Of a stretch of 24,000 bases of DNA, positions 1 to 14,871 are shown piece after piece. This DNA comes from an uncultured Chthoniobacterales bacterium. Its GTDB lineage: Bacteria > Verrucomicrobiota > Verrucomicrobiia > Chthoniobacterales > SZAS-18. Location of the stretch: NCBI GenBank assembly GCA_964245885.1, contig CAXTOX010000007.1:22480-46479 (forward strand), read 5' to 3'. The stretch's first letter is position 1. Each line of letters opens with the position of its first letter. Below the pieces are notes generated by a model. It searched no databases. It had not been told where the DNA came from and saw nothing but the letters and a program-made list of their open reading frames with translations. A program made the position numbers and the translations under genes.

Positions 1-1
1 A

Positions 2-382
2 GAGATGAACCGCCTCCGGCAGGAAGGCGTGGAGGTGATCGCCTTCGGCTACCAGGGCGAGGGCGAGTACATGCGCGACTGCGCGACGCACTTTTTTTCA
101 CCCAACAATGGACAGGACATCAGCCAGGGACTCAACGCCATCGCGGCCGAGGTCAACGATACGTCCGACGTGGTGATCGACGACGCCACGCGCCGGATCA
201 TGGGGACGCTGCCCGGCGTCGCGTCGATGCAGAGCGCGCCAGTCACCGAAGCCACCGCCGCCGCGACTCCTTCGCCCGCAACCGCCACGGCGAGCAGGAA
301 ACGCCATCCGTTCTTGCTCTGGCTGGGAATCTTTGTCGGCGTCATGCTGATCCGCTCGGCCTTCCGCAGCAAGCGTCGGTAA
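2..382 (+). CDS. C-terminal fragment of a membrane-anchored protein (possibly the end of a vWA-type domain); 5' end lies outside the window
   Basis: Frame is open from the window edge to the stop at 380-382. It has an Ala/Thr/Pro-rich linker and ends HPFLLWLGIFVGVMLIRSAFRSKRR (hydrophobic helix plus basic tail). The vWA idea rests only on the look of GVEVIAFGYQGEG...ISQGLNAIAAEV and is weak. Confidence 0.45.
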   Translation, partial: EMNRLRQEGVEVIAFGYQGEGEYMRDCATHFFSPNNGQDISQGLNAIAAEVNDTSDVVIDDATRRIMGTLPGVASMQSAPVTEATAAATPSPATATASRKRHPFLLWLGIFVGVMLIRSAFRSKRR

Positions 383-430: not shown

Positions 431-568
431 CTCGTCCCAAGGTAGGGATGGCTCTCCGAGCCGCTCCCTAATTTTTCCGGCGAGGCGCACCGTGCGCACG
501 TTGGTCATCCAAACCAAAACAGGGAGCGGCTCGGAGAGCCATCTCTACCTTGGGACGACGCCTGCGGC
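431..568. repeat. REP/BIME-like inverted repeat pair, family 1 (core GGTAGGGATGGCTCTCCGAGCCGCTCCCTA)
   Basis: Left arm 431-469 (ctcgtcccaaggtagggatggctctccgagccgctccct) is nearly the exact reverse complement of right arm 521-560. The spacer is about 50 nt. Each arm can also fold on itself (TAGGGA..GGCTC tcc GAGCC..TCCCTA). Related copies are at 8199-8354 and 5530-5560. Confidence 0.8.
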
Positions 569-583
569 AGCCTGGCACCATGC

Positions 584-2134
584 ATGAAAAAGGTTCTGTC
601 CATTTTTCTCATCCTGCTGACGCTGGCGATGGTCGGCTGGGGGCTGACCCGTCCCGGACGCGACGCGCGGCGGGCCGCCGACCTGTTCGCGCGCACCAGC
701 GACGCGCGGCAGTACAAGCGCACGGTCACGATCTGGGGCGACGACTGGCTCGGCTATCTCGTGTTGCGCTCGCCGCGTTTCGCCCACGCGCTCGCGGACC
801 ACGACATCGGCGTGCGTTGGGAGATGGAGCCGGATTTTGAAAAACGTTTCGCGGGCCTGCGCGACGGCCGGTGCGACTTCGTCGCCGCGACGCTCGACAG
901 CTACCTTGCCAACGGCAACGCGACGGGCTGGCCGGGCGCGATTACCTGGGTCATCGACGAGAGCTTCGGCGGCGACGCCGTGCTGGCGGGCGAGAACGTC
1001 AAAAATCTCGACGACCTCAACCGCGCGGGCGTGCGCGGGGCGTTCGTGGGGTTGTCACCGTCGGAGTTCTTGCTGCGCGCGGAGGTCAGCCATTTTCACC
1101 TCGACCGACTCCGCGCCGGGTTGGAGAAATCCCGCGTGGACAACGTCGAGACCGCCTACAACGCGCTCCGGGACAAGCGCGCGGATTTCGCCGTGCTGTG
1201 GGAACCCCTCGTGACCCGCGCGAAGACCGAAATCCCCGGCGCGCACGTGCTCATCGACACGCGCGAGGCGCAGGGCTTGATCATCGACATCGCTCTCGCG
1301 CGCCGCCAGTTGATCGACAGCGACCCGGCGCTGGTCCAGACCGTGACGCGCGCGTACTTCGAGGCGCTGCACGACTATCTGAACCACGCCGCCGCCTTCA
1401 CCGACGCCGCCGCGCACGACAGCGGCAAGGGCGCGGCCGACGCGGAAACGATGCTGCGCGGGGTCCGCTTCGACACGCTCGGCGACAACGTGCAGGACTG
1501 GCTTTCCGAAAGCCACGACCACGACGCGCGGCTCGCGACGAGCGTGGGGCAAATCCGCGCGATCCTGCGCGACCACCAGCAGCGCATCGACCTGCCCAAC
1601 GATGATCCTGATTCCATCCTGTACCGCGGCGTCGTCCAGGCCGTGGGCAAACAGCCGACCGGCATCGCCGAACTCTCGGGCGGCGCCGCGGCGAAACGCA
1701 GCGACCCGGCGCGGCAGTTAGGTCAATATTACCCACCGTTGACCCCCGACCAGTGGGACGCGCTGGCCGGACAGGTGCGCGGCACGCTGCTCGACGAACC
1801 CATCGTCTTCCAGCCCGGGCAGACGGACATCCCCGAGGACTTCCAAGCGTCCATCCGCGACGCCGCGCCCAAGCTGGCGAACTACCCGGCGTTTCGCGTC
1901 GTCGTCGAGGCGCACGTCAGCCCGGGTGAATCGAAGGAAGCGGACCAGGCGCTCTCCGAGGCCCGCGCGCTGGAGGTGAAGCGTTTTCTCTCCACCGAAT
2001 GCGGCGTGCCGGAAGACCGGGTCCTCGCGCGGGGGAAGGGTTCCGGCGAGCCGCCGCAGCGTTATCCGGGTGAGACGGACGCGGCGTGGGCGCGAAGGGC
2101 GCGGCGGGCGCGGATTTACTTGGTGGGTCAGTGA
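584..2134 (+). CDS. Membrane-anchored periplasmic-binding-protein-like (NitT/TauT/NMT1-type SBP) domain fused to a C-terminal OmpA-family peptidoglycan-binding domain
   Basis: ATG at 584 gives the N-terminal anchor MKKVLSIFLILLTLAMVGWG. TIWGDDWLGYLVL...CDFVAATLDSYLANG resembles type-2 SBPs. The C-terminus FRVVVEAHVSPGESKEADQALSEARALEVKRFL...RARIYLV is OmpA_C-like. Family names come from motif recognition only. Confidence 0.65.
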   Translation: MKKVLSIFLILLTLAMVGWGLTRPGRDARRAADLFARTSDARQYKRTVTIWGDDWLGYLVLRSPRFAHALADHDIGVRWEMEPDFEKRFAGLRDGRCDFVAATLDSYLANGNATGWPGAITWVIDESFGGDAVLAGENVKNLDDLNRAGVRGAFVGLSPSEFLLRAEVSHFHLDRLRAGLEKSRVDNVETAYNALRDKRADFAVLWEPLVTRAKTEIPGAHVLIDTREAQGLIIDIALARRQLIDSDPALVQTVTRAYFEALHDYLNHAAAFTDAAAHDSGKGAADAETMLRGVRFDTLGDNVQDWLSESHDHDARLATSVGQIRAILRDHQQRIDLPNDDPDSILYRGVVQAVGKQPTGIAELSGGAAAKRSDPARQLGQYYPPLTPDQWDALAGQVRGTLLDEPIVFQPGQTDIPEDFQASIRDAAPKLANYPAFRVVVEAHVSPGESKEADQALSEARALEVKRFLSTECGVPEDRVLARGKGSGEPPQRYPGETDAAWARRARRARIYLVGQ

Positions 2135-2162: not shown

Positions 2163-2918
2163 ATGAAAGCGCCCGACCGCATCGACGTTGCCCGGCAAGC
2201 CCTGGGACAGGTGTTGACTCATCCCGTGACGTGGGTGCCGTTCGTGCCGGTGGCGGCGGCGTTTGCGTTCTTGGGCGCGGCGTGGTGGCTGTGTCTGGCG
2301 GTGGCGCTGGCCGTGGCGGTCGTGGTGTTCCTGGCTTGGTCGCACTCCTGGCCGCGGCTGACGGCGGTGACGCGCGCCCGGATGCTCGCCGCGCACCGCG
2401 CCGACGAGGACGAGGAACTGGCCGCGCGGGTGCAGCGCCTGGCGTTGTCGCCGCAGCGGGCGTCGGCGCTGGAAACCCTCGCCGCCCTGCGCGAGGCGAC
2501 GGCGATCAAGCGTTCCATCGAGGACCGGGTGCATGCGGACGGGGTCGTCACCGATCACGAAGCGGAAGTCAGCGCGATGGTAGGCGAACTGGTCCGCACG
2601 ATGGTCGAGGAAGCCGAGCGGCTGACGCTGACGGACGGCGGCGCGGTGTCGCCGACAACCGCCGGACGTTTCGACAAAGCGGCGGCGACGCTGCGGCAGG
2701 TTTACTCCGAGATCGACGTGGTGCTCGACCCGGTGCCCGAGGACCTGCGGGTGCCCGCCGGGGACGATGCGCTTTCCCGCGCCAGCGAACGTCTCGACGA
2801 ACGGCTCAAGCTCGCGCGCGGCATCCGCCGACACCTGGAGCGCGACATCCCTCTGCCGGAAGCGGAGGAGAGCGCGAGTGTTTCCCGTTTACCTGACTCA
2901 CCAAAGCAACCAGAATAA
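2163..2918 (+). CDS. Hypothetical inner-membrane protein: two N-terminal TM helices plus a long helical/coiled-coil cytoplasmic domain; likely PspA partner
   Basis: I chose the internal ATG at 2163 (MKAPDRID...) because the upstream part of ORF 2070-2918 is Arg/Gly junk overlapping the previous gene. TM segments are VTWVPFVPVAAAFAFLGAAWW and LCLAVALAVAVVVFLAW. The stop lies 6 nt before the pspA ATG. Confidence 0.6.
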   Translation: MKAPDRIDVARQALGQVLTHPVTWVPFVPVAAAFAFLGAAWWLCLAVALAVAVVVFLAWSHSWPRLTAVTRARMLAAHRADEDEELAARVQRLALSPQRASALETLAALREATAIKRSIEDRVHADGVVTDHEAEVSAMVGELVRTMVEEAERLTLTDGGAVSPTTAGRFDKAAATLRQVYSEIDVVLDPVPEDLRVPAGDDALSRASERLDERLKLARGIRRHLERDIPLPEAEESASVSRLPDSPKQPE

Positions 2919-2924
2919 CCATCT

Positions 2925-3668
2925 ATGTTTAGACGCATCTTCAACGTGTTCCGCGGCTTCGTCGGTCTGTTCGTCGGAGGGATCGAACGCCGTAATCCCG
3001 AGGCCCTGCTCGAAGTCGAACGGGAGAATCTCCGCAAGCAGATTTCCCAGTATAACCAGGGGTTGGCCGAGCACGCCGGGCTTTGCGAGCGTCTGATGAG
3101 CCAGGTCAAGAAACTCGAAGTCGAGGAAAACGACCTGCGCGCCAAGACCAGCGTGAACCTGCGCGCGGGCAACAAGGATTCCGCGGGCCAATACGCCCTG
3201 CGCCTGCAAACGATCAGCGGCCAGCTCAAGGAAAACCGCGCGCAGGCCGAGTCGGCGGAAAAGACTTACCAGGAACTCGTCCGCGCCCGCGAGGTGAGCG
3301 TGCGCGCCGCGCAGTCCAAGATCGAGGCGCTCAAGTACAGTCTGAGCGACCTGAAGATCAAGAACGCGACCGCCGAACTCAGCGAAATGGCGGCGGGCAT
3401 GATCCAGCAGATCGGCGGTTCGGGCGACACGCTGGGGCGCTTGAGCGAGATGGTCGAGGAAGACCGCCAGCGCGCCGCCGGCCGCGCGCGGGTGGCCAAG
3501 GACTCGTTGGACACGAGCGACATCCACATGAAGGAAGCCGAGCAGAAGGCGCTGGCCGATCAGGCGCTAGCCGACTTCGCGGCCAAGGAAGGCATCGCCG
3601 TCGATCCGGTCACGCCGGCTTCCGCCGAACAACGCACGAAGACGATGGGACCGGCGGAAAACCAGTAA
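2925..3668 (+). CDS. pspA: PspA/IM30/Vipp1-family protein (bacterial ESCRT-III superfamily)
   Basis: 247 aa. It has an N-terminal amphipathic helix (MFRRIFNVFRGFVGLF), then NPEALLEVERENLRKQISQYNQGLAE... and a long heptad-like helical hairpin typical of PspA/IM30. Confidence 0.85.
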   Translation: MFRRIFNVFRGFVGLFVGGIERRNPEALLEVERENLRKQISQYNQGLAEHAGLCERLMSQVKKLEVEENDLRAKTSVNLRAGNKDSAGQYALRLQTISGQLKENRAQAESAEKTYQELVRAREVSVRAAQSKIEALKYSLSDLKIKNATAELSEMAAGMIQQIGGSGDTLGRLSEMVEEDRQRAAGRARVAKDSLDTSDIHMKEAEQKALADQALADFAAKEGIAVDPVTPASAEQRTKTMGPAENQ

Positions 3669-3684
3669 GCGAGGCACGAAAATT

Positions 3685-3788
3685 TATCCGCAGATTACGC
3701 AGATTTTCGCAGATTGAAGAAATAGGGCAGAACAAAGCATCTTTTCCCTCTTCCGCTAATCCGCGAAAATCTGCGTAATCTGCGGATA
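3685..3788. repeat. REP-like inverted repeat, family 2 (GCAGATT-type); possible transcription terminator or RNA stabiliser after pspA
   Basis: Arm 3685-3715 (tatccgcagattacgcagattttcgcagatt) is the reverse complement of 3758-3788 (aatccgcgaaaatctgcgtaatctgcggata) with one mismatch. GCAGATT occurs three times directly within the arm. The region is AT-richer than its surroundings. Confidence 0.8.
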
Positions 3789-3817
3789 GATTCTGCTCCT
3801 CCCGCGAACGACCCGCC

Positions 3818-5503
3818 ATGCCTGCCCCAGACCTGACCGCACTCGCCCCGTGGGCGGCGGAGATGATCGCGCTCTACCAAAGCCACACCGCGAGCCAGTT
3901 CATTCTCAGCGGCAACGTCAACGACCGTTTCCTGCTCCCGCTTGGGCCTGGCAAGCCGGTGCTCGGCAGCCTGACGGAGTTTCTCGGCAAAGTGCTGCTG
4001 CCGCGCTTCGACGTGGTGCTCAGCTACGACCTCGGCAACGGCTTGCGCGTGGAACACGGCGGCGAGGCGTTCGCCCAGTGGCCCGCTTCCCAGCTCGGCA
4101 CCCCACTGCCGCGTGCGCCGCGTCCCGCCGTCGAGACGCTGACGCACTATTTTCGCTACAACGCCAACCTCGGCCGTCTGGGCAAACCCACCTTGCAAAT
4201 CGGCTGCTGGCTGCGTTCGGCCCACCTCATCGCGCCCGCCGTGCCCGGTACGGCGACCGACTACGACCTGAGCGCGCTGGCCCTGCTGATGCGCGACTGG
4301 GCCGGCGACGCGCTGTTGAACGATTCGCGTCTCGTGACATGCCTGATCGTGGACAACCTGAACGACTTGCATCCGTTGTTAGTCAACAATCCGCGCGTCG
4401 CCCGCATGTCGATCCCGCTGCCGACGACGGCGGAACTGCACACCGCGCTCGAAGGGCTTGCCCCCGCTGCTCCGGCCGCGCTCGCGGAGTTTGCGGGCAA
4501 GCTGGACGAACTGTCCGCCGCGCTCACCGGCTCGACGCTCACGGCCGTCGAAAATCTCGTCAAGCTCAAGGAATACCGCCGCGAACCGCTCCGCCCCACC
4601 GATCTCGTGGGCCTGAAGAAAGAACTCGTCGAACGCGAGGCCGGTGGCCTGATCGAATTCGTCGAACCCCGTCGCACGCTGGAGGATTTCCACGCGCCCG
4701 CCGCCATGAAGGACGCCCTGCGCGAGGACATCGCGCTCTGGCACGCGGGCGACACCGCTGCCTCGCCGATGGGTTACCTCATCTGTGGACCGGTCGGCAC
4801 GGGCAAGACGTTCCTCGTCGAATGCCTGGCGGGCGAGGCCGGCATCCCGGTGGTCAAGATCAAAAACTTCCGCGACAAGTGGGTCGGCAGCACGGAAGGC
4901 AACTTGGAAAAAATCTTTCGGCTCCTGCACGGGTTGGATCGCTGCTACGTGTTTATCGACGAGGCGGACCAGGCGCTTGGGCGGCGCGATCCGGGCGGCA
5001 ATGACAGCGGCCTGGGCGGCCGGGTTTACTCGATGTTCGCCGCCGAGATGAGCAACCCGTCGAACCGCGGGCGGATCGTGTGGGTATTAGCGTCGAGCCG
5101 CCCGGACCTGATCGAGGTCGATCTCAAGCGGCCCGGCCGCGTCGACGTGAAGTTGCCACTGTTCCCCACGGCGACGCCGGAGGAGAGTTTTGCACTGCTG
5201 CGCGCGTTGTGCCGTCGACGGGAGATCGTGCTAGATGAATCGGACCTCGCGGCGAACCGCGAGCGGATGCCCCTGCTTTTGACTCCTGGCGCGGCGGAAA
5301 CGCTCGCGTTGAAGATTTACCGCACGGCGAAAACCCGCCGGGTCTCCTCCGCCGATGCGCTGGCCGCGGCGCTGGCCGATTACCAGAACCCGGTACCGTT
5401 GCAAACGCTGCGGTTTCAGATCGCGCTGGCCGCCGCCGAGGCGAGCGACCGGAGCTTTGTGCCAGTGGCGTTCCGTGAAACAGTGGAAGCTAACCCGATT
5501 TGA
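3818..5503 (+). CDS. Classical-clade AAA+ ATPase (Cdc48/FtsH/Vps4-like ATPase module) with a ~300 aa N-terminal region of unknown, possibly degenerate AAA-like, fold
   Basis: Walker A is GPVGTGKTF (about 4787-4813) and Walker B is CYVFIDEADQ. An SRH-like region VLASSRPDLIEVDLKRPGRVD carries Arg fingers. The protein is 561 aa. Confidence 0.85.
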   Translation: MPAPDLTALAPWAAEMIALYQSHTASQFILSGNVNDRFLLPLGPGKPVLGSLTEFLGKVLLPRFDVVLSYDLGNGLRVEHGGEAFAQWPASQLGTPLPRAPRPAVETLTHYFRYNANLGRLGKPTLQIGCWLRSAHLIAPAVPGTATDYDLSALALLMRDWAGDALLNDSRLVTCLIVDNLNDLHPLLVNNPRVARMSIPLPTTAELHTALEGLAPAAPAALAEFAGKLDELSAALTGSTLTAVENLVKLKEYRREPLRPTDLVGLKKELVEREAGGLIEFVEPRRTLEDFHAPAAMKDALREDIALWHAGDTAASPMGYLICGPVGTGKTFLVECLAGEAGIPVVKIKNFRDKWVGSTEGNLEKIFRLLHGLDRCYVFIDEADQALGRRDPGGNDSGLGGRVYSMFAAEMSNPSNRGRIVWVLASSRPDLIEVDLKRPGRVDVKLPLFPTATPEESFALLRALCRRREIVLDESDLAANRERMPLLLTPGAAETLALKIYRTAKTRRVSSADALAAALADYQNPVPLQTLRFQIALAAAEASDRSFVPVAFRETVEANPI

Positions 5504-5529: not shown

Positions 5530-5560
5530 GGTAGGGTCGCCTCGGAGAGGCGACCCTACC
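5530..5560. repeat. Perfect 14-bp-stem palindrome (REP family 1 relative) between the convergent AAA+ and rtcA genes; possible bidirectional terminator
   Basis: GGTAGGGTCGCCTC gga GAGGCGACCCTACC. It shares GGTAGGG and CCTCGGAGAG with the 431 and 8199 elements. There is no U tract on either side, so it looks more like a REP than a classical intrinsic terminator. Confidence 0.7.
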
Positions 5561-5595
5561 TTGGACAACCGGCCGCTTCGCGGCCTGTCAGGAAC

Positions 5596-6648
5596 CTACC
5601 TCGGTACGACGCGGACCTCCAACCCACTGGTGTTTAATGCTTCCTGCTGGAAGCGCACAGGCAGAAACGCCTCGATCACCCCGATGTTCGTCCGCGCGTG
5701 CGGCGACAAGCCGGCCGTGCGGAACGCCCCGCCACCGGCCAGCGCCATCGGCAGCAAAATCTGGTCGGTTAGGTATTCGCCCACGGGCAACCCGGCCGCG
5801 AGGTAGGCGCGAACCTGTTCCACCAGGCGGTCGGCCACGGCTTCGGCGCGCAAGCCGCGTTCACCGACCGCGCTGAAAACTTCCACGTGCGACTTCGACG
5901 CGACCTCGCCGACGAGCGCGAAACCTTGACCCCGCTCGGCCGGATGCTCGATGCATTCGCACACCGCCCGGCCCCAACGCAGACGTTTGTCCACCTGCAC
6001 GAAGGCGCGCTCCGCCACACCTGGCGGCAAACTGGCGGCATGTGCCACGACGCGGCGTGAGCCTTCCGCACCGCGGGTCAGCAGTTCCACCGGAACAAAC
6101 CGGTCGGTCGGCGTCACGTCCACCTCGATCTGACCACCTCCCGCCGGGTAGAAACCGGCGCGCATCAACGTCGCTTCCACCCGAGGGCCGAAGCGATGGA
6201 AGACCGGTAGGAAAGTGCGCGCTAGAAAATCGAAAGGAGGCGCGAGCGGATTGTGCGTGCCGCCTTCCAACGTCAAACGCGACGGTCCGGCGGCCAGCGC
6301 CAGCGCGGGCAGGATCGTTTGCAAAACGAGCGTCGTACTCCCCGCCGTGCCGACGGCAAAGCGGTAGTCGCCCGCGCGCACCACGCCAGGACGGAACACG
6401 AGTTCGCCCGCGCCGATTTCCGCGCCGTCGCACGCGGCGTCGCTGATCTCGACCGCCGCACGCACCGCCGTCAGGTGCTGCCGCAATAATCCCGGCTTCG
6501 CCCGGCCCGCGCGAATGTTCGTGATGCGGAAGGCGCGGCCCGTCACGAGCGACAGGGCGAGCGAGGTGCGCAGGATTTGTCCTCCGCCCTCGCCCGCCGC
6601 ACCGTCGATGGTGACCACCGGCGACGAACCGGCTGACCGCGTCTTCAC
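5596..6648 (-). CDS. rtcA: RNA 3'-terminal phosphate cyclase RtcA
   Basis: DGAAGEGGGQILRTSLALSLVTGRAFRITNIRAGRAKPGLLRQHLTAV matches the RtcA signature, including the RAGRAKPGL...H nucleotidylation region. A GTG start overlaps the rtcB stop (GTGA at 6648-6645), which implies translational coupling. Confidence 0.9.
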   Translation of the reverse strand: MKTRSAGSSPVVTIDGAAGEGGGQILRTSLALSLVTGRAFRITNIRAGRAKPGLLRQHLTAVRAAVEISDAACDGAEIGAGELVFRPGVVRAGDYRFAVGTAGSTTLVLQTILPALALAAGPSRLTLEGGTHNPLAPPFDFLARTFLPVFHRFGPRVEATLMRAGFYPAGGGQIEVDVTPTDRFVPVELLTRGAEGSRRVVAHAASLPPGVAERAFVQVDKRLRWGRAVCECIEHPAERGQGFALVGEVASKSHVEVFSAVGERGLRAEAVADRLVEQVRAYLAAGLPVGEYLTDQILLPMALAGGGAFRTAGLSPHARTNIGVIEAFLPVRFQQEALNTSGLEVRVVPR

Positions 6649-8156
6649 GCCGCGCCTCCCAGGCTGCCGTCGGCATCCTTGATGACGAACCGTGCCCGCA
6701 GGCGCGCGACTTCCGACGCGAGGCCGGCTGATTTCACGCTGCGCAGCACCTCGTCGAAATCCTTGTACGCCGCGGGTGCCTCATCCTTAGGATAGAACCG
6801 GCAGTTCGTCAGAATGTCGAGGTCGGTGAACTGCTGGTCCACCGTCTGCTGGTCGAACTCGCGGATGGCCGCCTTGCGCCCCTTGGCCCGGCCCGCGCCG
6901 TGGTTGACCGAATAGCAGCTCAACGCCGCGCCCGGTTCCGCGACCATGACGCTGCTACCCGCCGCCGGGTTGCCCGGCAGCAGGATGGGATGGCCCGTCT
7001 CGGCAAACGGCGTGCCGGCGAGCGCGTGGTGACCGCCCGGGTAGGCGCGGGTCGCCCCTTTGCGGTGCACCCAGGCCGGACGATTTCCCACGATCTCGCG
7101 CCGCGCGATGTTGTGGCTGATGAAGTACACCAGCCCGCCGGTCGTGCCGGGAATGATTTCCTGGAACGCTTCCAGCACGAGGGCGTTGATGAGCAGGTGG
7201 TTCACCGTGGCAAAGTTCGCGCCGAGGGCCATGTCGTCCAAGTACGCGTCGGCCTCGGGCGTGTCGAGGGGAGCATACACCAGTTCCTTGTCCTGGCCCG
7301 GCAACGGCAAACCCCAGCGCGCGAAGAACCCCTGTAACGCGTGGAACTGACCCATCGCCAGATTGTGCCCGAAGCCGCGCGAGCCGCAATGCGACAGGAA
7401 GGCGAGGCCGCCGTCGCGCAGGCCGAAACTCTCGGCCGTCGCGCGCAGGCGTTCGTCGCCGGACAGTTCCACCGCCTCGCACTCGCCGAAATGGTTGCCG
7501 CCGCCGTAGCTGCCGAGCTGCGTCATCTTTTCGTCGAACTTCGGGAAAGCGCCGCCGCTGATCAACCGGTCCAGACGCGAGCGGAGGGCGTCCGCCGTGC
7601 CGTCGTGGCCGACGTGCGACGCGTCCTCGCAATGCGCGGCCCACGCGGGCGGGATGCCCAGGGCTTCGCACACCTCGACGGACGCGCCTTCGGTCGCCAC
7701 GCGGCGGCCGAGTTCCGGCGAAACACGGCGTGACTTGCGCGCGGAACGCTGCCCACGACCGGCACCGGTTGGAGTGCGTTCGCAGATCGCGTCGATGAGC
7801 GAGCGGCGGACCGTGCGTTCCGCGACGGCGTCGGCGGGCAGGCCGAGGGCGAGCAGGCTCATGGAGCATTTGATGTCCACGCCGACCGGGCCGGGATAGA
7901 TGTGCGTGGGCGACACCATCACGCAGCCGACCGGCGCGCCGTAGCCCGCGTGGGCGTCGGGGTTGAGGACGAGGTCCGTCACGCCGGGCGCGCCGCGGGA
8001 GTTGAGAGCCTGTTCGAGGCAGCGCGCGTCGAAGCCCTGACGGATGGCTTCGGTGCCGATGACGGTGATCGGCTTGCCGTGCGACCCGCGCGCGGGCAGG
8101 AAGCCGGTGGCCTCGCCGGTGGCGGTGATGGGTGAAGGGATGGATTCAGGGTTCAT
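6645..8156 (-). CDS. rtcB: RNA ligase RtcB (3'-phosphate/5'-hydroxyl RNA-splicing ligase), long ~500 aa form
   Basis: Motifs present: NPDAHAGYG, GVDIKCSM, SYGGGNHFGE, HCGSRGFGH and VNHGAGR (the nucleophilic His motif). Confidence 0.9.
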   Translation of the reverse strand: MNPESIPSPITATGEATGFLPARGSHGKPITVIGTEAIRQGFDARCLEQALNSRGAPGVTDLVLNPDAHAGYGAPVGCVMVSPTHIYPGPVGVDIKCSMSLLALGLPADAVAERTVRRSLIDAICERTPTGAGRGQRSARKSRRVSPELGRRVATEGASVEVCEALGIPPAWAAHCEDASHVGHDGTADALRSRLDRLISGGAFPKFDEKMTQLGSYGGGNHFGECEAVELSGDERLRATAESFGLRDGGLAFLSHCGSRGFGHNLAMGQFHALQGFFARWGLPLPGQDKELVYAPLDTPEADAYLDDMALGANFATVNHLLINALVLEAFQEIIPGTTGGLVYFISHNIARREIVGNRPAWVHRKGATRAYPGGHHALAGTPFAETGHPILLPGNPAAGSSVMVAEPGAALSCYSVNHGAGRAKGRKAAIREFDQQTVDQQFTDLDILTNCRFYPKDEAPAAYKDFDEVLRSVKSAGLASEVARLRARFVIKDADGSLGGAA

Positions 8157-8198
8157 GGCAAGATCAGGTTGGAGTGAGGAAATGTGTGAGCAGGCTTC

Positions 8199-8354
8199 CC
8201 GCCGCAGGCGTCGTCAACAATGGGTAGGGATGGCTCTCCGAGCCGCTCCCTAACTTTTCTGGAAAGTGTTTCGCCGCAATGACAGTTAACCAGAGAACAA
8301 TAGGGATTGCCTCGGAGAGCCATCCCTACCCATTGTTGACGACGCCTGCGGCGG
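8199..8354. repeat. REP/BIME-like inverted repeat pair, family 1, inside the rsr-rtcB transcription unit
   Basis: Arm 8199-8252 (ccgccgcaggcgtcgtcaacaatgggtagggatggctctccgagccgctcccta) faces arm 8301-8354 (tagggattgcctcggagagccatccctacccattgttgacgacgcctgcggcgg). The spacer is about 48 nt. It has the same core as the 431-568 element. Confidence 0.8.
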
Positions 8355-8381
8355 CTCCAGGCATGATTTGAAAGGAAATTT

Positions 8382-8513
8382 ACGGCGACAAAATTGAAGT
8401 GACGTTTTACGTGCTCTACCACTGAGCTACGGTTCCGTGGAAAGTGGAACCGGCGGGACTCGAACCCGCGACCCGTCCGTGTATAGGGATGTAGTCACAT
8501 CGGCATTCGCCGC
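8382..8513 (-). ncRNA. Y RNA-like unit 4 (YrlA-type) with a circularly permuted tRNA-like module
   Basis: Minus strand. Terminal stem GCGGCGA/UCGCCGU, then AUGCC..GUGAC UACAU, paired 3' with AAAAC GUCAC. Inside are a T arm GCGGG-UUCGAGU-CCCGC, a 7-bp acceptor-like hairpin CGGUUCC/GGAACCG, and a D arm UA-GCUC-AGUGGUA-GAGC. The arm order T, acceptor, D is that reported for YrlA. Ends are approximate. Confidence 0.75.
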
Positions 8514-8543
8514 AAAATTTGGAAATGGATTAAAAGTGAGGAT

Positions 8544-8692
8544 GACCGACGGTTCGTGATGACAAGAGATTGGTGAAACGGTTTTCGATGCTCTCCCGTT
8601 GAGCTATTCGGCCTTGCGGCCGAACCGGGACTCGAACCCGGAACCGGCGAATTAAATGTAGTTCCACGCGGCATTCGTCACGAGAGCCGGTC
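8544..8692 (-). ncRNA. Y RNA-like unit 3 (YrlA-type) with a circularly permuted tRNA-like module
   Basis: Minus strand. Terminal stem UCGUGACGA/UCAUCACGA (one C-A mismatch) plus outer GACCG/CGGUC, then AUGCC..GUGGAAC UACAU, paired 3' with AAAAC C GUUUCAC. Inside are a T arm CCGGG-UUCGAGU-CCCGG, an acceptor-like 7-bp stem UUCGGCC-GCAA-GGCCGAA (GNRA loop), and a D arm UA-GCUC-AACGGGA-GAGC. Ends are approximate. Confidence 0.75.
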
Positions 8693-8699
8693 ATTCTGC

Positions 8700-8848
8700 G
8701 AGCGTGCCGACAACCGGCGGCAGGACGTTTTACTGAGCTATCCCGTTTTGAGGCGGGACCAGATGTCGAATCTGGGACCTCCCGCGCGAGGCTTTCACCT
8801 CGCGCGGGCGCTCTTACCATGTAGTCCGTGCCTGCATTCGGCACGCTC
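8700..8848 (-). ncRNA. Y RNA-like unit 2, whose tRNA-like module appears to be opened in the D loop rather than the anticodon stem
   Basis: Minus strand. Perfect 11-bp terminal stem GAGCGUGCCGA/UCGGCACGCUC, then AUGCA..GGAC UACAU, paired 3' with AAAAC GUCC. Inside are GGUAAGAGCG, an 11-bp GC hairpin CCCGCGCGAGG-UGAAAG-CCUCGCGCGGG, AGGUC, a T arm CCAGA-UUCGACA-UCUGG, an acceptor-like hairpin UCCCG..CGGGA, and UAGCUCAGU. Confidence 0.7.
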
Positions 8849-8876
8849 AAATTTTCTGCAAAGAACAAGGGGTTGA

Positions 8877-8939
8877 TCGCCGACAAGTTTCTGGTGAGAC
8901 CCTCACATGGTAAAATGTAGTCCCACCGGCATTCGGCGA
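8877..8939 (-). ncRNA. Y RNA-like unit 1, a minimal form without a tRNA-like module (YrlB-like?)
   Basis: Minus strand, starting 6 nt after the rsr stop. Perfect terminal stem UCGCCGA/UCGGCGA, then AUGCC GGUGGGAC UACAU...GUCUCACC (8 bp with one G-U). It has the same 5' motif as units 2-4 but only about 63 nt. Confidence 0.55.
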
Positions 8940-8944
8940 AAGGT

Positions 8945-10501
8945 TTACAGTGCGATTTGCTCGATCTGCTCCACCCAGTGACCCGCCCGCAGGTTGCCCT
9001 GCGCGAAGGCCGCCACGATCTCGAACACCGCGTCCGAGAAGCCGCCGACGTTAAGGATGTCCCCGCGTTCGGCCGCCTGCGTGCTCGCGTACGGCTGGAT
9101 GTCCAGGCACACCAGCCGGGCGCGCGGGTTGCGGGCGCGGAACGCCGACCATTCGGCCATCGTCGCCGTGCTGCGGCCCCCACCCTGCGCGTCCATCCAG
9201 GACATGTTGTCCGAGACGACGATCACGAGGTCGCCGGTCGCGCGCATCTTGTTCAGGTGCGCGAGTGGGGCCGAGCAGTTCGTCCCGCCGCTGGGCAGCG
9301 AGGCGAGCTTCTGCGCGTTGGTCATGACGCTGTCGCGGGCGTTGAGCTGGCACGGCACGACGCTGTCGCTGAAGGCCAGCACCTCCGCCGCCGGATTGCG
9401 CCGCAGGACGCTCGCCGCCACCAACGCGGCCACGTCGATGCAGCGCGTCTTGGTCGTGGACCCGGCGCGGTGGCCGGTCACGGGCGACTGCATGGAACCG
9501 GACACATCCGGGCAAACGTACACCTGTCCGTCGATGGCCGGGACGTTCTCCGTGGCGATCTCCATCGCGTCCTGGAGCGCGCCCCGCACGGTGGCGGGCA
9601 CCGCCTGGTCGGCGGCGTGGAACGCGGTCAGGAGTTGGTAGGGAAAGCACCGGGCGCGGCGCACCTTCTGCGGGTCGCGCAGACGGTAGGCGATACGGTG
9701 GGTAAGGTCCTGATCGTCGAACACGCCGTGGCGCGCGAAGGTGTTCAGGTTCATGCGCGTGGTCTGCCACGAGGCGTTCTCCGCGATGGCCTGCCAGGCG
9801 GCGCGGTCGAGGTCGAGCGCGGTCAGCATCTGGAAAGGCACGTCGGGCACGGCCTGGATGAAGCCACCCTTGAAGGCGTCGAACTGGCGTACCAACGGCG
9901 GCAACTGCGCGGCGTCGTGCGTGCGGCCGATCAACCAGCCGTACAGCGCCTCGCGCTGAGCGTTGGCCGGGCGCGGGTGCACCATCTTGACGACATCCGC
10001 CAGCGAAGGCGACTGGCCGACCGACGCGCGGAACACGCCCTCGTCGTCGCGGCGTTCCAACCAGCGGCGCACGAGGCGGCGCGGGGCGCTGCCGAGCGAC
10101 TTGCGGCCCGTGACGCCGCTGCGGACGATCTGCACGAAGCTGCGCAACGTGCGGCCGTCGTCGATCACGCGGTCAAAGACGCGTTCCAGCATCGGTACGT
10201 CGAGCGTGGCCAGCGCGGCGCAAAGCAGGGCGGGCGTGTCCTTCATGAAGCCACGCGTGCGGCAGTAGATCGCCGTCTGCGCCACGAACGCCGCGTCGGC
10301 CTGGCCGGCCAGCGCGAGAAGGCGTTCCAACTGCGCTTCCGCGCTCGCGTAGAACGTCGTGTTCAGGCAACCGGTGACCGCATACTGCGCGAGGGCATGC
10401 CGGGGCGGCAGCGCGAAGGCCGGGCCGCCGGCCTCATTGCGGGCGTTCGTCCGGGGCAGGATCGCCCCGGCAACGGTCTGGAAGAGAGTCTTGTTGGCCA
10501 T
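8945..10501 (-). CDS. rsr: Ro60-related protein Rsr (TROVE domain plus C-terminal vWA/MIDAS)
   Basis: MANKTLFQTVAG...NEAGGPAFAL...QYAVTGCLNTTFY is a typical TROVE N-terminus. The MIDAS motif is CPDVSGSM. I prefer the ATG at 10501 over the ORF-track start at 10552, whose extra 17 aa are Arg/Thr-rich. Confidence 0.9.
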   Translation of the reverse strand: MANKTLFQTVAGAILPRTNARNEAGGPAFALPPRHALAQYAVTGCLNTTFYASAEAQLERLLALAGQADAAFVAQTAIYCRTRGFMKDTPALLCAALATLDVPMLERVFDRVIDDGRTLRSFVQIVRSGVTGRKSLGSAPRRLVRRWLERRDDEGVFRASVGQSPSLADVVKMVHPRPANAQREALYGWLIGRTHDAAQLPPLVRQFDAFKGGFIQAVPDVPFQMLTALDLDRAAWQAIAENASWQTTRMNLNTFARHGVFDDQDLTHRIAYRLRDPQKVRRARCFPYQLLTAFHAADQAVPATVRGALQDAMEIATENVPAIDGQVYVCPDVSGSMQSPVTGHRAGSTTKTRCIDVAALVAASVLRRNPAAEVLAFSDSVVPCQLNARDSVMTNAQKLASLPSGGTNCSAPLAHLNKMRATGDLVIVVSDNMSWMDAQGGGRSTATMAEWSAFRARNPRARLVCLDIQPYASTQAAERGDILNVGGFSDAVFEIVAAFAQGNLRAGHWVEQIEQIAL

Positions 10502-10583
10502 GGAAGTGCAGGTTGACGTTTGAGTCGCCCGCCGTCGGTTCGATGTTCGCACCGGACGGACGTTGAGCGATGAACCCTTCTAT

Positions 10584-10598
10584 CGCTAGGCACGTGCC
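10584..10598 (-). promoter_or_regulatory. Sigma54 (-24/-12) promoter for rsr-Y RNA-rtcBA
   Basis: The minus strand reads TGGCACGTGCCTAGC. This matches TGGCACG-N4-TTGC, with GG and GC at the canonical spacing and one mismatch (TAGC for TTGC). It lies about 85 nt upstream of the rsr ATG, next to divergent rtcR, which is a sigma54 activator. Confidence 0.7.
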
Positions 10599-10743
10599 AG
10601 CGAAGATTTCTCCAATTGCTTTCAATGCGTAAATTCCTTTCGCGCAGAGAGAAAAATTTATTTTGGCATGGCATCGTGTTAAGCAGGGCGCATTGTTGCT
10701 AGCACCAACCTAGATTTATCGCTAGCTATTTAGCGTATCCGCC

Positions 10744-12369
10744 ATGCCTACCAAGAAGCTCGTCGTCCTCGGTTTACTCGGGACCCAGTTGGATTCGGGC
10801 AAGAACGCCCACCGCTGGGAAAACTGGCGGCCCACCGTCTCGCTCTGCCAACACGACGATCTGCTCGTCGCGCGGCTCGAACTACTCCACGACCGCCGCC
10901 ACACCAGCCTCACCGAAACCGTGACGACGGACATCGCCGGGGTCTCACCGGAGACGGAAGTTCACGGGCACCTCGTGGAATTCAGCGACCCGTGGGACTT
11001 CGAAGAGGTCTACGGCTCGCTGGCGGACTTCGCGCGCGGCTATCCCTTCGACCCGGAAAAAGAAGACTACCTCGTCCACATCACCACGGGCACGCACGTC
11101 GCTCAGATCTGCCTCTTCCTGCTGACGGAGTCGCGACGTTTCCCGGGACGGCTCATCCAGACTTCCCCGCCCGCCGAACGCCAGCCCCGGCACCGCGCGG
11201 CCGCCGGGCGGTACTCCATCATCGACCTGGACCTGTCGCGCTACGACCGCATCGCGGCGCGCTTCGCCGAAGAACAGCGGGAAGCGCGCACGTTCCTCAA
11301 AAACGGCATCGCCACGCGCAACGCCGCGTTCAACCGCATGATCGAGGAGATCGAGCAGGTGGCCGTCGCGTCGCGCGAGCCGATGCTGTTCATGGGGCCG
11401 ACCGGCGCGGGGAAATCGTCGCTGGCGCGCAAGGTGTTCGAGTTGAAACGCGGCCGGCACCAGCTCGCCGGGCAGTTCGTGGAGGTCAACTGCGCGACCC
11501 TGCGCGGGGACACTGCGGTGAGCACGCTCTTCGGCCACGTGCGGGGAGCGTTCACCGGGGCGCAGCGCGACCGTCCGGGACTGCTGCGCACGGCGAACGG
11601 CGGGCTGTTGTTCCTCGACGAAATCGGTGAACTCGGCCCCGACGAACAGGCCATGCTGCTGCGCGCGCTGGAGGAAAAACGCTTCCTGCCCGTCGGCGCG
11701 GACCAGGAAGCGGTGAGTGACTTCCAGCTCATCGCCGGAACGAACTGCGACCTGTCCGGGGCGGTGGCCAAGGGCGAGTTCCGCGAGGATCTGCTGGCGC
11801 GGATCAACCTGTGGACCTTCGCACTGCCAGGGCTCGCGCAACGGTCCGAGGACATCGCGCCCAACCTCGACCACGAACTCGAACGCGCGGCGCAACGGCT
11901 CGGCCGGCGCGTCGGCATGGCCCGGGACGTGCGCGGGGCGTTCCTGGATTTCGCGCGTTCGGGCGAGGCGAAGTGGAGCGCGAACTTCCGCGACCTGAAC
12001 GCCGCCGTCACGCGCATGGCCACGCTCGCGCCGGGCGGACGGATCACGCGCGAGGTGCTGGCCAGGGAGCTTATCCGTCTGCGGGCTGGCTGGCAGAACG
12101 CGAACGGCACGGAGAGCGGCCGGGCGGGCACGGGCGACGAGGCATTGCTGGTCGAAACGCTGGGCGCGGACGGGGCAGCCTCGCTCGACTTATTCGACCG
12201 GGCGCAGCTTGCCTGCGTAGTGCGGGTTTGCCGCGACAGCAAAACCTTGAGCGAGGCCGGCCGGCGGCTCTTCGCGGTGACCCGGGGCAAACGCAAGGTT
12301 GCCAACGATGCCGACCGGCTGCGCAAATATCTCGCGCGTTTCGGCCTGGTTTGGCCGTGCGGCGTCTAG
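10744..12369 (+). CDS. rtcR: Sigma54-dependent transcriptional activator RtcR (CARF-like sensor N-domain, AAA+ core, C-terminal HTH)
   Basis: N-terminus KLVVLGLLGTQLDSGKNAHRWENWRPTVSLC is RtcR-type. Walker A is GPTGAGKS, the sigma54-contact loop is GAFTGA, and Walker B is LLFLDEIGEL. It is divergent from rsr. Confidence 0.9.
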   Translation: MPTKKLVVLGLLGTQLDSGKNAHRWENWRPTVSLCQHDDLLVARLELLHDRRHTSLTETVTTDIAGVSPETEVHGHLVEFSDPWDFEEVYGSLADFARGYPFDPEKEDYLVHITTGTHVAQICLFLLTESRRFPGRLIQTSPPAERQPRHRAAAGRYSIIDLDLSRYDRIAARFAEEQREARTFLKNGIATRNAAFNRMIEEIEQVAVASREPMLFMGPTGAGKSSLARKVFELKRGRHQLAGQFVEVNCATLRGDTAVSTLFGHVRGAFTGAQRDRPGLLRTANGGLLFLDEIGELGPDEQAMLLRALEEKRFLPVGADQEAVSDFQLIAGTNCDLSGAVAKGEFREDLLARINLWTFALPGLAQRSEDIAPNLDHELERAAQRLGRRVGMARDVRGAFLDFARSGEAKWSANFRDLNAAVTRMATLAPGGRITREVLARELIRLRAGWQNANGTESGRAGTGDEALLVETLGADGAASLDLFDRAQLACVVRVCRDSKTLSEAGRRLFAVTRGKRKVANDADRLRKYLARFGLVWPCGV

Positions 12370-12382
12370 CCGCCCATCGCGT

Positions 12383-13138
12383 TCAGGTGTCTGTCGAGAT
12401 GTCGTCCCAATCCTGATCCATGTAGCCGATGAGCCAGTTCAGGACGTAATGGCGTTCCTGCACGACGCCACCTTCCAGTTTCGCGGGCGTCTCTTTGCCC
12501 TTGACCCGTGCATCGACGGCAGCCCAATGGTAGCGGTAAGCCAGATCGGCCTCGTCGAGGATGGAAGCCAGCGGGCGGAGTTTGGCGTCCTGGACGAACC
12601 GGGCGGTTGTCCGGTCTTTCAGGAGGCGGACCGCCTTGGGGACATCGCACATGGCCTCGGGACGTTCCAGGGTGTCGACATATCCGAGAGCCCACAGCAA
12701 CACCCAGTAGTCCTCGTAGCGCCAGGAGTAGTCGACGCGTTCCTGCTGGGTCGGGTTCGGGTCCTTGATGAAGGCCGCCTCCTTCGGCGAAAGGAACGCT
12801 TCGGCTCCGTACCTTTGCACCAGAGCATCCACCGTGGCCTGATCGACGCCCTCGCCTTTGGCGGCCGTCAGGCAAACGGCGATGGCGCGCCTGGCGATCT
12901 CCTCCGCCGTGCGGGTCTTCGCCTGCGTGGAATCTTCGATGACCGGCAGGTGGTCAATAGTGGGAACGCCCTCTTGCCGGAGGCGGGTGACCGAACGAGC
13001 CCTGCGCTCGACGGCCTCTTTGGACGGCTCATTGCGCTCATGCTCTTCGATCTTGAGACGGCGCTCGTCATTGGTCTGGGACATCAGCGTGGTAGAAAAA
13101 ACAAGGCACAGAGCAAAGGTGGCCAGATAGCGTTTCAT
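12383..13138 (-). CDS. Secreted hypothetical protein (possibly DUF4272-like)
   Basis: I prefer the ATG at 13138 (MKRYLATFALCLVFSTTLMSQ, a signal peptide). WRYEDYWVLLWALGYVD resembles DUF4272 as far as I remember that family. It lies 62 nt downstream of serA on the same strand. Confidence 0.6.
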   Translation of the reverse strand: MKRYLATFALCLVFSTTLMSQTNDERRLKIEEHERNEPSKEAVERRARSVTRLRQEGVPTIDHLPVIEDSTQAKTRTAEEIARRAIAVCLTAAKGEGVDQATVDALVQRYGAEAFLSPKEAAFIKDPNPTQQERVDYSWRYEDYWVLLWALGYVDTLERPEAMCDVPKAVRLLKDRTTARFVQDAKLRPLASILDEADLAYRYHWAAVDARVKGKETPAKLEGGVVQERHYVLNWLIGYMDQDWDDISTDT

Positions 13139-13200
13139 AGGTTGAAGAAGCCGACGCCCAAACATTACACAAGCTCCCCCGCCCTGCCGCGCACAGCCCC

Positions 13201-14799
13201 TTACAAACTCACCACCCGCGCGCTGAGAATATCCGCGTCGCCGCGCACCTGCGCGAGTGTTTCGGCGTCGGGTTCGCTGTCGAGGTTGATGACCGTCAAC
13301 GCCGTGCCGCCGGCGGCGTCGCGGCTCAGGCTCATCGTGGCAATGTTGATCCCGCGTCCGCCCAGCAGGCTGCCGATCTTGCCGACCATGCCGGGCACGT
13401 CGCGGTTTTCCAGTAGTAGGAGCACGCCTTCCGGCCGCGCCTCGATGTGCTGGCCGTTGATCTGCACGATGCGCGGCTTGGCCCCGAAGAACGTTCCCGC
13501 CACCGACACCGGCGCGCCTTCACCCGAGACCGCGACCTCCAGCAGGTCCGTGAAATCGCCCGGCACATTCTGGCGCGTCTCGACGACCTTCAGGCCCCGC
13601 TCGCGCGCCCGCGCCAGGGCGTTGACCGCGTTGACGACCTCCGCGCCCATCGCGGGTTCGAGGAAGCCTTTGACCACCGCGCGGGTGATCGGCCCCGTGT
13701 CGGATTCGTTGACGCGGCCCGAGTAGTTGACGGTGAGTTGCTCGCTGCGGCGCGACGGCGCGAACTGCGCCACGAACCGCCCCAGCCGCGCGCCGAAATC
13801 CAGGTACGGCCCGACGACCGCGAGCGTTTTGGCGTCGAGGTTGGGCGCGTTGACGGCGTTGCGGATCACCCCGTCCACCAGCGCCGCACGGACGGCTTGC
13901 GCGATCTCGATGCCGACGCTTTCCTGCGCCTCCGCCGTGCTCGCGCCGAGGTGCGGGGTGAACACCATCTTCGGATTCGCCCGCAACGGGAAATCGGCCG
14001 GCGGCGGTTCGGTCTCGAACACGTCCAGCGCCGCCCCGGCAACGTGGCCGCTTTCCAGCGCGGCCAACAGCGCCGCTTCGTCGATCAGACCACCCCGTGC
14101 GCAGTTGACGATCCGTACCCCGGCCTTGCACAACGCGAGACGGCGGGCGTCGAGCATGTGCCGGGTCTCGGGCGTCAGCGGCATGTGCATCGAGATAAAA
14201 TCCGCGCGCGGCAGGGCGTCGTCGAGGCCATCGGCGAGTTCAACCTGGAGCGCGCGCGCCCGGCTGGCGGCGAGGTACGGGTCGTAGGCGACCACGCGCA
14301 TACCGAAGGCAATCGCGCGCCGGGCCAGTTCGCTGCCGATGCGGCCCATGCCGAGGATCGTCAGCGTCTTGCCGTAGAGTTCGACGCCCTGGAACTTCTT
14401 GCGCTCCCACTTACCCGCCACCACGGAGGCACTCGCCTGCGGGATCGTGCGCGCCGTGCTCACGAGCAGCGAGAACGTGTGCTCGGCCGTGGAGATCGTG
14501 TTGCCGTCGGGCGTGTTCATCACGATGACCCCGCGCGCCGTGGCCGCTTCCACATCCACGTTGTCCACTCCCACCCCGGCCCGGCCGACGACGCGCAACG
14601 CCCCGGCGGCTGCGAGCACGCGTTTGTTCACCTTGGTCTCCGAACGCACGATCAGCGCGGCGCAGCCGGGGATGACCTCCAGGAGTTGCTCCTCCTTCAT
14701 CCCGGTCTGGAAGATAACCTCGAAGCGGCCGTCGCTCTGGAGTTCCTCGACGCCGCGCGTCGAGATGGGATCGGCAACCAGCACTTTGAATTTGTCCAT
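13201..14799 (-). CDS. serA: D-3-phosphoglycerate dehydrogenase SerA (long form with ASB and ACT domains)
   Basis: Starts MDKFKVLVADPIS at 14799. NAD motif is LGMGRIGSELARRA, followed by the catalytic region CARGGLIDE...HLGAST and an ACT-like C-terminus. The 816 aa ORF in the track is an Arg-rich 5' over-extension. Confidence 0.9.
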   Translation of the reverse strand: MDKFKVLVADPISTRGVEELQSDGRFEVIFQTGMKEEQLLEVIPGCAALIVRSETKVNKRVLAAAGALRVVGRAGVGVDNVDVEAATARGVIVMNTPDGNTISTAEHTFSLLVSTARTIPQASASVVAGKWERKKFQGVELYGKTLTILGMGRIGSELARRAIAFGMRVVAYDPYLAASRARALQVELADGLDDALPRADFISMHMPLTPETRHMLDARRLALCKAGVRIVNCARGGLIDEAALLAALESGHVAGAALDVFETEPPPADFPLRANPKMVFTPHLGASTAEAQESVGIEIAQAVRAALVDGVIRNAVNAPNLDAKTLAVVGPYLDFGARLGRFVAQFAPSRRSEQLTVNYSGRVNESDTGPITRAVVKGFLEPAMGAEVVNAVNALARARERGLKVVETRQNVPGDFTDLLEVAVSGEGAPVSVAGTFFGAKPRIVQINGQHIEARPEGVLLLLENRDVPGMVGKIGSLLGGRGINIATMSLSRDAAGGTALTVINLDSEPDAETLAQVRGDADILSARVVSL

Positions 14800-14871
14800 G
14801 ACGCTGAGAGAAAAAGGGTGGCCCGCAAGGTGAAGGTTGCAAAGCGGGGTGTCAAAGTGGAAGTCTCCACG

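Follow-up and report, generated by a model that had tools for sequence, protein, structure and literature searches.

We analysed a stretch of 24,000 nt from a contig of an uncultured Chthoniobacterales bacterium (CAXTOX010000007.1), called the window in the following, which carries a gene for a divergent PspA/IM30 protein of the ESCRT-III superfamily upstream of a gene for an AAA ATPase. The gene string of interest lies entirely on the + strand and reads, in this order, the 3' end of a VWA-domain gene, a palindrome, a gene for an envelope protein with a periplasmic-binding-protein-like and an OmpA-like part (PBP-OmpA), a gene for a helical protein with room for two transmembrane (TM) helices (2-TM protein), the gene of the PspA-like protein (pspA), a long inverted repeat and the ATPase gene. 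All genes named in a preliminary description of this DNA, which had suggested a bacterial module akin to ESCRT-III and Vps4, were recovered with the same coordinates and strand, including the 6-nt gap between the 2-TM gene and pspA and a spacer of 149 nt between pspA and the ATPase gene.

The PspA-like protein (2925..3668, +, 247 amino acids (aa)) is matched by the Pfam family PspA_IM30 (PF04012) from end to end, i.e., its residues 2-220 align with profile positions 3-216 of 220 (E 2.8e-7), where the score of 30.8 bits falls just short of the curated cut-off of 33.9 bits. The same profile matches 29/29 orthologues tested (best E 2.7e-13), and precomputed Pfam annotation labels the neighbours of homologous ATPases PspA_IM30. 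Orthologues are 56-82% identical across phyla. From this Pfam relationship, the protein may be expected to adopt an ESCRT-III fold.

With regard to conserved elements, the N-terminus of the protein (2925..2990, +) carries the conserved pattern MFxRIxNLFRGFFGLF. Its residues 1-20 show the highest helical hydrophobic moment of the protein (0.57-0.58), compared to a mean of 0.30 for shuffled sequences, of which 3% reach this value. Judged from sequence, this segment is a predicted membrane-binding amphipathic helix that resembles alpha0. Beside this N-terminus, the family conserves a helix EQKALADQALADFAAKEG and a C-terminal motif, K-T-M-G-P (3639..3653, +), which closes a variable linker rich in Pro, Ala and Thr. 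The loose form of the motif, K-[TS]-M-G-P, is present in 123/134 orthologue tails, and the remainder are near-variants. It is located 5-8 residues from the C-terminus, and the whole tail after a conserved ALAD[FL] helix comprises 26-42 residues. We infer that the K[TS]MGP motif is a candidate handle for the ATPase.

The ATPase (3818..5503, +, 561 aa) matches Pfam AAA with residues 321-446 (E 1.7e-22). Its top NCBIfam matches are CDC48, FtsH and PAN and not MoxR or sigma-54 types. Together with the Walker A/B motifs and the arginine fingers R438 and R441 (see below), this bears out the earlier assignment to the classical Cdc48/FtsH/Vps4-type clade. The nearest relatives (91% and 82% identity) stem from metagenome-assembled genomes (MAGs) of Verrucomicrobiota, while the exact sequence is on record in none of the public assemblies. 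The AlphaFold2 (AF2) model of the protein is confident (pLDDT 83.7) and starts with a helix (11-21) followed by a first strand (27-32). A Foldseek comparison aligns the model over 570-620 columns with D1 and D2 of Drg1/AFG2, p97/VCP, NVL, Rix7 and Cdc48 (E ~1e-16). The N-terminal half is therefore an AAA-fold domain and not an MIT or small adaptor domain. That is, where an MIT-like N-terminus had been considered in the preliminary description, structure prediction places a degenerate AAA domain (D1) instead.

This D1 (3818..4642, +) is delimited by Foldseek and conservation. Reading the active sites across 26 diverse family members, we observe that D1 lacks both Walker motifs. Its P-loop position reads F-I-L-S-G-N-V-N-D, with family consensus hGNVxD and no GK[ST], and no DE acidic pair follows the strand equivalent to Walker B (residues 128-133). 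The family of this N-domain comprises 575 clusters at 50% identity. The second half, D2 (4643..5503, +), was assigned by phmmer and Pfam AAA and consists of a classical AAA cassette, predicted to be active, with a helical lid and a C-terminal region. In D2 the same 26 members retain a Walker A motif (G-P-V-G-T-G-K-T, residues 324-331, 4787..4810, +; family GxxGxGK[TS], with G327, G329 and K330 invariant) and a Walker B motif (Y-V-F-I-D-E-A-D, residues 377-384, 4946..4969, +; family hhhhDEAD, with D381, E382 and A383 invariant). Pore loop 1 (K-W-V-G, residues 354-357, 4877..4888, +; family K-[WFY]-x-G) is always aromatic at position 355 (W19, F4, Y3) and has an invariant G357. In the second region of homology (R-P-G-R, 5129..5140, +), both arginine fingers, R438 and R441, are invariant (26/26). 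As far as motifs can tell, the ATPase thus has all that a substrate-threading classical AAA hexamer needs, and the model identifies it as a tandem AAA protein of p97/NVL/Drg1-like build with a putatively dead D1 and an active D2. Two relatives (P0210 with 856 aa, P0255 with 818 aa) have two consecutive degenerate D1 copies (hGN[VIT]xD) before a single active AAA cassette.

In a phmmer search against PDB sequences, the best matches of D2 are the D2 domains of NVL, p97, VAT, AFG2 and Cdc48 (E 4e-33 to 1e-26), while Vps4 is not among the 60 best solved relatives of the ATPase. The NCBIfam model of CdvC scores 29.6 bits compared to a cut-off of 650 bits. The earlier label of a Vps4-like module thus holds as a functional analogy only: the enzyme is a tandem AAA protein outside the Vps4 family. 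Fusions of PspA with the ATPase ('Rosetta stone' proteins) were not found among the 314 collected proteins.

Evidence for a link between both genes comes from their neighbourhood in other genomes, which we assessed in both directions. Anchored on the ATPase, we collected 80 loci (47-91% identity, one genome per GTDB species), of which 71 are informative, i.e., provide at least 2 kb of upstream sequence. A same-strand PspA orthologue is located upstream in 59/71 loci, directly in 35 and with one intervening gene in 24. For the remaining loci, PspA is found elsewhere in the locus once (1/71) or not within 8 kb (11/71). Anchored on PspA, we collected 80 loci from JGI metagenomes, of which 52 have enough downstream DNA to be informative, and a same-strand ATPase follows downstream in 48/52. 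In a set of 48 adjacent PspA-ATPase pairs, the median of the estimated spacers is 36 nt; in 15 of them the genes overlap or lie at most 10 nt apart. The gene-neighbourhood check proposed in the preliminary description therefore comes out in favour of the pair (59/71 and 48/52, same strand, often overlapping).

The loci cover Verrucomicrobiota, Acidobacteriota, Planctomycetota, Elusimicrobiota, Desulfuromonadales, Xanthomonadales, Dongiaceae and Brocadiaceae, and the pairing spans more than eight bacterial phyla. A distant ATPase subfamily (~35% identical; Planctomycetota, Elusimicrobiota) has the same partners. For instance, PspA and the ATPase are separated by a 6-nt gap in a planctomycete locus (L165), while a locus from Elusimicrobiota (L164) shows the order PspA, NMT1/OmpA, ABC permease, ABC ATPase, a 274-aa protein and the ATPase. 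The distance matrices of PspA and the ATPase correlate with r = 0.65, which is reached by 0/999 Mantel permutations. This correlation points to co-inheritance and is by itself no evidence for a physical interaction. The mean pairwise identity is 62% for the PspA partner vs 55% for the ATPase. Taken together, an adjacency beyond chance supports a functional link between the PspA and ATPase genes, and the two form a conserved pair that, judging from its arrangement, is usually co-transcribed. Cultured carriers of the pair are Pseudoxanthomonas mexicana, Arenimonas composti and Pseudomarimonas salicorniae; in the ATPase-anchored set, the locus of Verrucomicrobium spinosum comes from a MAG.

The ATPase loci without PspA within 8 kb in Akkermansiaceae and Verrucomicrobiales (L030, L033, L054, L058, L062, L064, L077, L079, L081, L082) include an Akkermansia muciniphila MAG and Oceaniferula spumae. 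In several of them the ATPase gene is followed by a 3D-domain protein or a conserved 372-aa protein instead.

The window itself differs from its relatives in the spacer between both genes, which holds an inverted repeat of 112 nt (3681..3792) with 47-nt arms that are 85% complementary. Its predicted folding energy (dG) is -68.8 kcal/mol (z -9.35). No U-tract and no terminator call on the + strand were found for it. The nearest relatives (L003 and L005) lack the repeat and have a pspA-ATPase spacer of about 66 nt, and the repeat is a recent, genome-specific insertion into what is otherwise a compact operon. Three CGCAGATT repeats are found in each arm, at intervals of about 9-10 nt. This spacing is close to one helical turn and could mean a protein-binding array instead of a plain repetitive extragenic palindromic (REP) element. 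The preliminary description had called the element a REP hairpin and had seen the link of both genes weakened by it. The hairpin is real; its repetitive nature is unproven, as a search of the window for a second copy returned none. Given the missing U-tract and the genome-specific insertion, it is also only weak evidence for separate transcription. REP elements occur within E. coli operons. By analogy, the palindrome more likely tunes the ratio of upstream to downstream expression, e.g., by stabilizing the pspA-proximal transcript, than splits the operon.

That both genes adjoin fortuitously, with the hairpin parting two independent and unrelated transcription units, would fit the long spacer and the strength of this hairpin. 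The reciprocal conservation of the pair across phyla and the absence of the U-tractless hairpin from the closest relatives argue against such a coincidence, which we regard as effectively excluded.

We also characterized the genes upstream of pspA. The 2-TM protein (2163..2918, +, 251 aa) occupies the slot directly before pspA, and its start is backed by 251-aa homologues at 100% coverage. It has a single hydrophobic block of 44 residues (21-64), which leaves room for two TM helices; some 190 residues of helix come after it. The AF2 model of the protein is all-helical (pLDDT 73.9), and we describe it simply as helical where the preliminary description had spoken of a coiled coil. The 44 homologues found are all at least 49% identical, i.e., the family is narrow, and the protein has no match in Pfam, NCBIfam or PADLOC. 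In other loci around the PspA-ATPase dyad, a helical 2-TM protein with a length of about 250-300 aa recurs (termed c2, 25 loci), of which the 274-aa protein from Elusimicrobiota is a member (hhalign probability 99.8%). Homology of the window's protein to c2 was rejected as unproven (hhalign probabilities 2.9% and 0.3%), as was homology of its family to PspA (0.3%). Likewise, c2 itself could not be related to PspA/Snf7 (0.35% vs PspA). Pfam gave no Snf7 match for either the 2-TM protein or c2, and a Foldseek search of the 2-TM model against the PDB found nothing below E 0.27, with CdvB ranking fifth at E 1.2. A 'divergent Snf7' identity of the 2-TM protein is therefore not confirmed by these sequence and fold comparisons. 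The description that suits the protein best is that of a membrane anchor which is either a lineage-specific replacement of the usual one or has diverged from it to an extreme degree.

Further upstream, the PBP-OmpA protein (584..2134, +, 516 aa) combines an N-terminal signal or anchor (hydrophobic residues 1-23), a solute-binding-like middle part (residues 96-309, weak NCBIfam matches to ABC periplasmic-binding models) and, at the C-terminus, an OmpA-like domain for peptidoglycan binding (Pfam OmpA, residues 409-499, E 5e-11). It is related to a PBP(NMT1)+OmpA family (c3) that recurs in 17 loci around the dyad. The VWA-domain gene is truncated by the window edge, such that only its 3' end (1..382, +) with a C-terminal TM anchor is available (hydrophobic residues 102-121 of the fragment). 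The fragment matches a 308-aa VWA protein (3822-4748) of the relative L003 (phmmer E 3e-28), whose gene string is VWA-OmpA-2TM-PspA-AAA; the VWA gene is an upstream member of this string in close relatives. The region between the VWA and PBP-OmpA genes holds a palindromic element (432..558) with 43-nt arms that are 93% complementary and the core GGTAGGGATGGCTCTCCGAGCC. This core is shared by a REP-like family of intergenic palindromes at 432-558, 5534-5564 and 8199-8354. A perfect GC-rich hairpin of this repeated family, GGGTCGCCTC-GGAGA-GGCGACCC (5534..5560), lies shortly after the ATPase stop codon in the convergent region between the ATPase gene and rtcA and probably marks the end of the transcription unit.

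Given this neighbourhood, the ATPase could chiefly act as a chaperone in the assembly or extraction of the 2-TM, VWA, PBP-OmpA or ABC proteins, with PspA merely co-expressed to protect the membrane. The recurrence of the 2-TM helical (25 loci) and PBP+OmpA proteins (17 loci), of an ABC permease and an ABC ATPase and of SBP+VWA proteins (solute-binding protein; 10 loci) around the ATPase would fit such a role. VWA proteins often partner AAA+ ATPases, as in MoxR-type systems, which counts in the same direction. On the other hand, each accessory gene is found in a minority of the loci while PspA is present in 83-92% of the informative ones, many loci are bare PspA-ATPase dyads, and even the 2-TM protein of the window shows no detectable homology to the common c2. 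We thus consider envelope proteins as the chief clients quite unlikely. Membership in an anti-phage defence system was rejected as well, since among the PADLOC defence models the ATPase has only generic AAA-level matches to IetA (at most 33.7 bits) and the other three proteins have none.

The explanation that we favour takes the window as one instance of a widespread bacterial module, formed by a divergent PspA/IM30 protein and a dedicated tandem AAA ATPase. PspA would polymerise at the inner membrane, on its cytoplasmic side, and the ATPase would engage PspA subunits, most plausibly via their C-terminal tail. ATP-driven extraction or unfolding of subunits could then disassemble, recycle or remodel the polymer. 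The role would be that of Vps4 for ESCRT-III, taken by a differently built enzyme that does without an MIT domain. The upstream 2-TM helical protein would probably anchor or nucleate the assembly at the membrane, and the VWA and PBP-OmpA envelope proteins, as sensors or tethers, would probably link it to a periplasmic or peptidoglycan cue. That the ATPase hexamer acts on PspA itself, with the 2-TM protein as anchor and PBP-OmpA/VWA as sensors or tethers, we hold to be somewhat probable.

A number of observations weigh against this explanation. Both the interaction of ATPase and PspA and the disassembly are predictions, and no recognised ESCRT-III-binding domain, MIT or other, is present in the ATPase. 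Within the window, a very stable hairpin parts pspA from the ATPase gene. The pairing is also not universal: PspA is missing within 8 kb in 11/71 ATPase loci, mostly of Akkermansiaceae and Verrucomicrobiales, and the ATPase is missing in 4/52 PspA loci. These four PspA loci keep the tail motif, such that the motif does not track the ATPase and a comparison of motif and ATPase presence is uninformative. When the PspA family profile is run against PDB sequences, neither PspA nor Vipp1 is found at E<=1 and only spurious coiled-coil matches are reported; the PspA-like protein therefore represents a divergent subfamily. Finally, the known bacterial precedent, PspA-PspF, is a PspA that inhibits an AAA+ protein and not an AAA+ protein that remodels PspA.

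The precedent suggests a reversed logic, in which PspA inhibits the ATPase in unstressed cells and membrane damage recruits PspA, freeing the ATPase for other clients, for instance membrane proteins that are damaged or mislocalised. In E. coli, PspA binds to the AAA+ domain of PspF and inhibits ATP hydrolysis by PspF (cited in PMC7619361), conserved synteny would suit a regulator and its enzyme just as well as a substrate and its enzyme, and some ATPase orthologues have no adjacent PspA. PspF, however, belongs to the NtrC-type AAA+ proteins and carries a DNA-binding domain, while the window's enzyme is a classical-clade tandem AAA protein with a threading pore loop. Furthermore, PspA is more conserved than the enzyme (62% vs 55%), and a conserved terminal motif on a flexible PspA tail resembles an engagement handle. 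An inhibitory role of PspA is thus unlikely in our view. Beside this, Pfam scans of the window's main open reading frames (ORFs) found no PspF, PspB or PspC, as had been stated before. The window encodes a single sigma-54 activator, RtcR (10744-12369) of the neighbouring rtc/rsr operon, and the search for sigma-54 promoters gave no match near the PspA-ATPase cluster and only one good match, upstream of rsr.

Compared with the classical Psp system of Gammaproteobacteria (PspF-PspABC), the window shares a PspA-family effector with a putative amphipathic N-terminal helix that is genetically tied to an AAA+ protein. It differs in that this partner is no NtrC-type sigma-54 activator and has no helix-turn-helix, and in the missing PspB/PspC and sigma-54 promoter near the cluster. 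With ESCRT-III/Vps4 (CdvB/CdvC) it has in common that the gene of a polymer-forming ESCRT-III-superfamily protein adjoins that of a classical-clade AAA protein with aromatic pore loop and arginine fingers, and that a conserved C-terminal element is located on a flexible tail, similar to MIM motifs. In contrast to Vps4, the window's ATPase has no MIT domain and is a tandem AAA protein with a dead D1 instead of a single cassette; its D2 is nearest to D2 of NVL/p97/AFG2, and its partner is of PspA type and not of Snf7 type. The fold of the D1-D2 tandem is that of Cdc48/p97/VAT, NVL/Rix7 and Drg1/AFG2 over ~570-620 columns, with D2 similarity down to E 4e-33. Unlike Cdc48/p97/VAT, however, the ATPase begins at D1 without the N-terminal double-psi-barrel domain for substrates or adaptors, has only 561 aa and has lost Walker A and Walker B in D1.

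The closest resemblance is to a dyad 'PspA + inactive-classical-AAA + classical-AAA' that Ravi et al. (2024, mSystems, PMC11237479) described by comparative genomics. According to their study, PspA, a membrane-anchored Snf7-like protein and the ATPase may be joined by an ABC ATPase, a permease and PBPB+OmpA, with examples from Clostridium (AEY64321.1/AEY64320.1) and Handelsmanbacteria (OGG56892.1), and an ATP-dependent membrane remodelling comparable to Snf7/Vps4 was proposed (PMC11237479). As in that dyad, the window's pspA adjoins the gene of a two-AAA protein with an inactive N-terminal copy, along with the optional PBPB+OmpA and membrane-anchored helical proteins. The locus from Elusimicrobiota introduced above (L164) reproduces the Handelsmanbacteria gene order of their Table S3; the link to their exemplar ATPase AEY64320.1 rests on architecture and on this gene order. 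Differences are that the window lacks the ABC permease/ATPase found in relatives and has an upstream VWA gene, that its 2-TM protein is narrow, lineage-specific and not detectably related to the protein in the common 'TM+Snf7' slot, and that a palindrome is inserted between pspA and the ATPase gene. The window is therefore a further example of a predicted and already published system, for which the same hypothesis was reached independently by Ravi et al. (PMC11237479). Its local peculiarities are the lineage-specific 2-TM protein and the palindrome. Popp et al. (2022) make no mention of this ATPase, and our literature search found no experimental study of the PspA-tandem AAA pair.

The remainder of the window holds features outside this gene string. 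Convergent with the ATPase gene and unrelated to it lies a complete RNA-repair locus (5596-12369) with an rtcA-rtcB-YrlA-rsr operon, i.e., rtcA (5596-6648, -), rtcB (6645-8156, -), two tandem candidates for YrlA-type Y RNAs (8379-8513 with 64.8 bits, 8553-8681 with 53.1 bits, both slightly below Rfam's gathering score of 69) and rsr/Ro60 (8945-10552, -). A sigma-54-like -24/-12 match is located at 10584-10599 (-), followed by the divergent rtcR (10744-12369, +). A DUF4272 protein (12383-13165, -, E 3.6e-70) is encoded between rtcR and a long D-3-phosphoglycerate-dehydrogenase-like gene (13201-15651, -). The Rfam Acido-Lenti-1 RNA motif occurs twice (15714-15760, -, and 15877-15923, +; 39.2 and 48.2 bits, gathering score 37), and its two copies make up the arms of an inverted repeat of 51 nt that encloses a second, smaller palindrome (15780-15856). 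Finally, an ORF of 726 aa (19816-21996, -) shows degenerate repeats of ~40 nt (direct-repeat families D1-D3) and no Pfam match; it may encode a repeat-rich surface protein.

Since the genomic association was already published in 2024, the value of this study lies in its quantification, in the dissection of domains and active sites and in a candidate recognition motif. That is, we add reciprocal synteny counts, a structure-based D1/D2 assignment with residue conservation, the K[TS]MGP motif and a list of cultured carriers. As the pair occurs in cultured organisms, the hypothesis is directly testable.

A co-inherited ATPase is the obvious candidate for the factor that takes bacterial PspA/Vipp1 polymers apart. 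We tentatively propose, as a possibility that falls slightly short of probable, that at least eight bacterial phyla hold a functional counterpart of ESCRT-III/Vps4, in which a Cdc48-like hexamer with a dead D1 and an active D2 would recognise a dedicated PspA paralogue by its conserved K[TS]MGP tail, thread this tail and thereby disassemble or constrict PspA polymers. Vps4-like ATPases or complete ESCRT systems have been stated to be absent from bacteria (PMC7619361, PMC10936438). If our proposal is true, an ATP-driven ESCRT-III cycle would, contrary to these statements, not be restricted to archaea and eukaryotes, and the bacterial cycle would either have an independent origin or predate the split of the domains. 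If confirmed, the module would also be relevant to how Vps4 arose from Cdc48-like ancestors.

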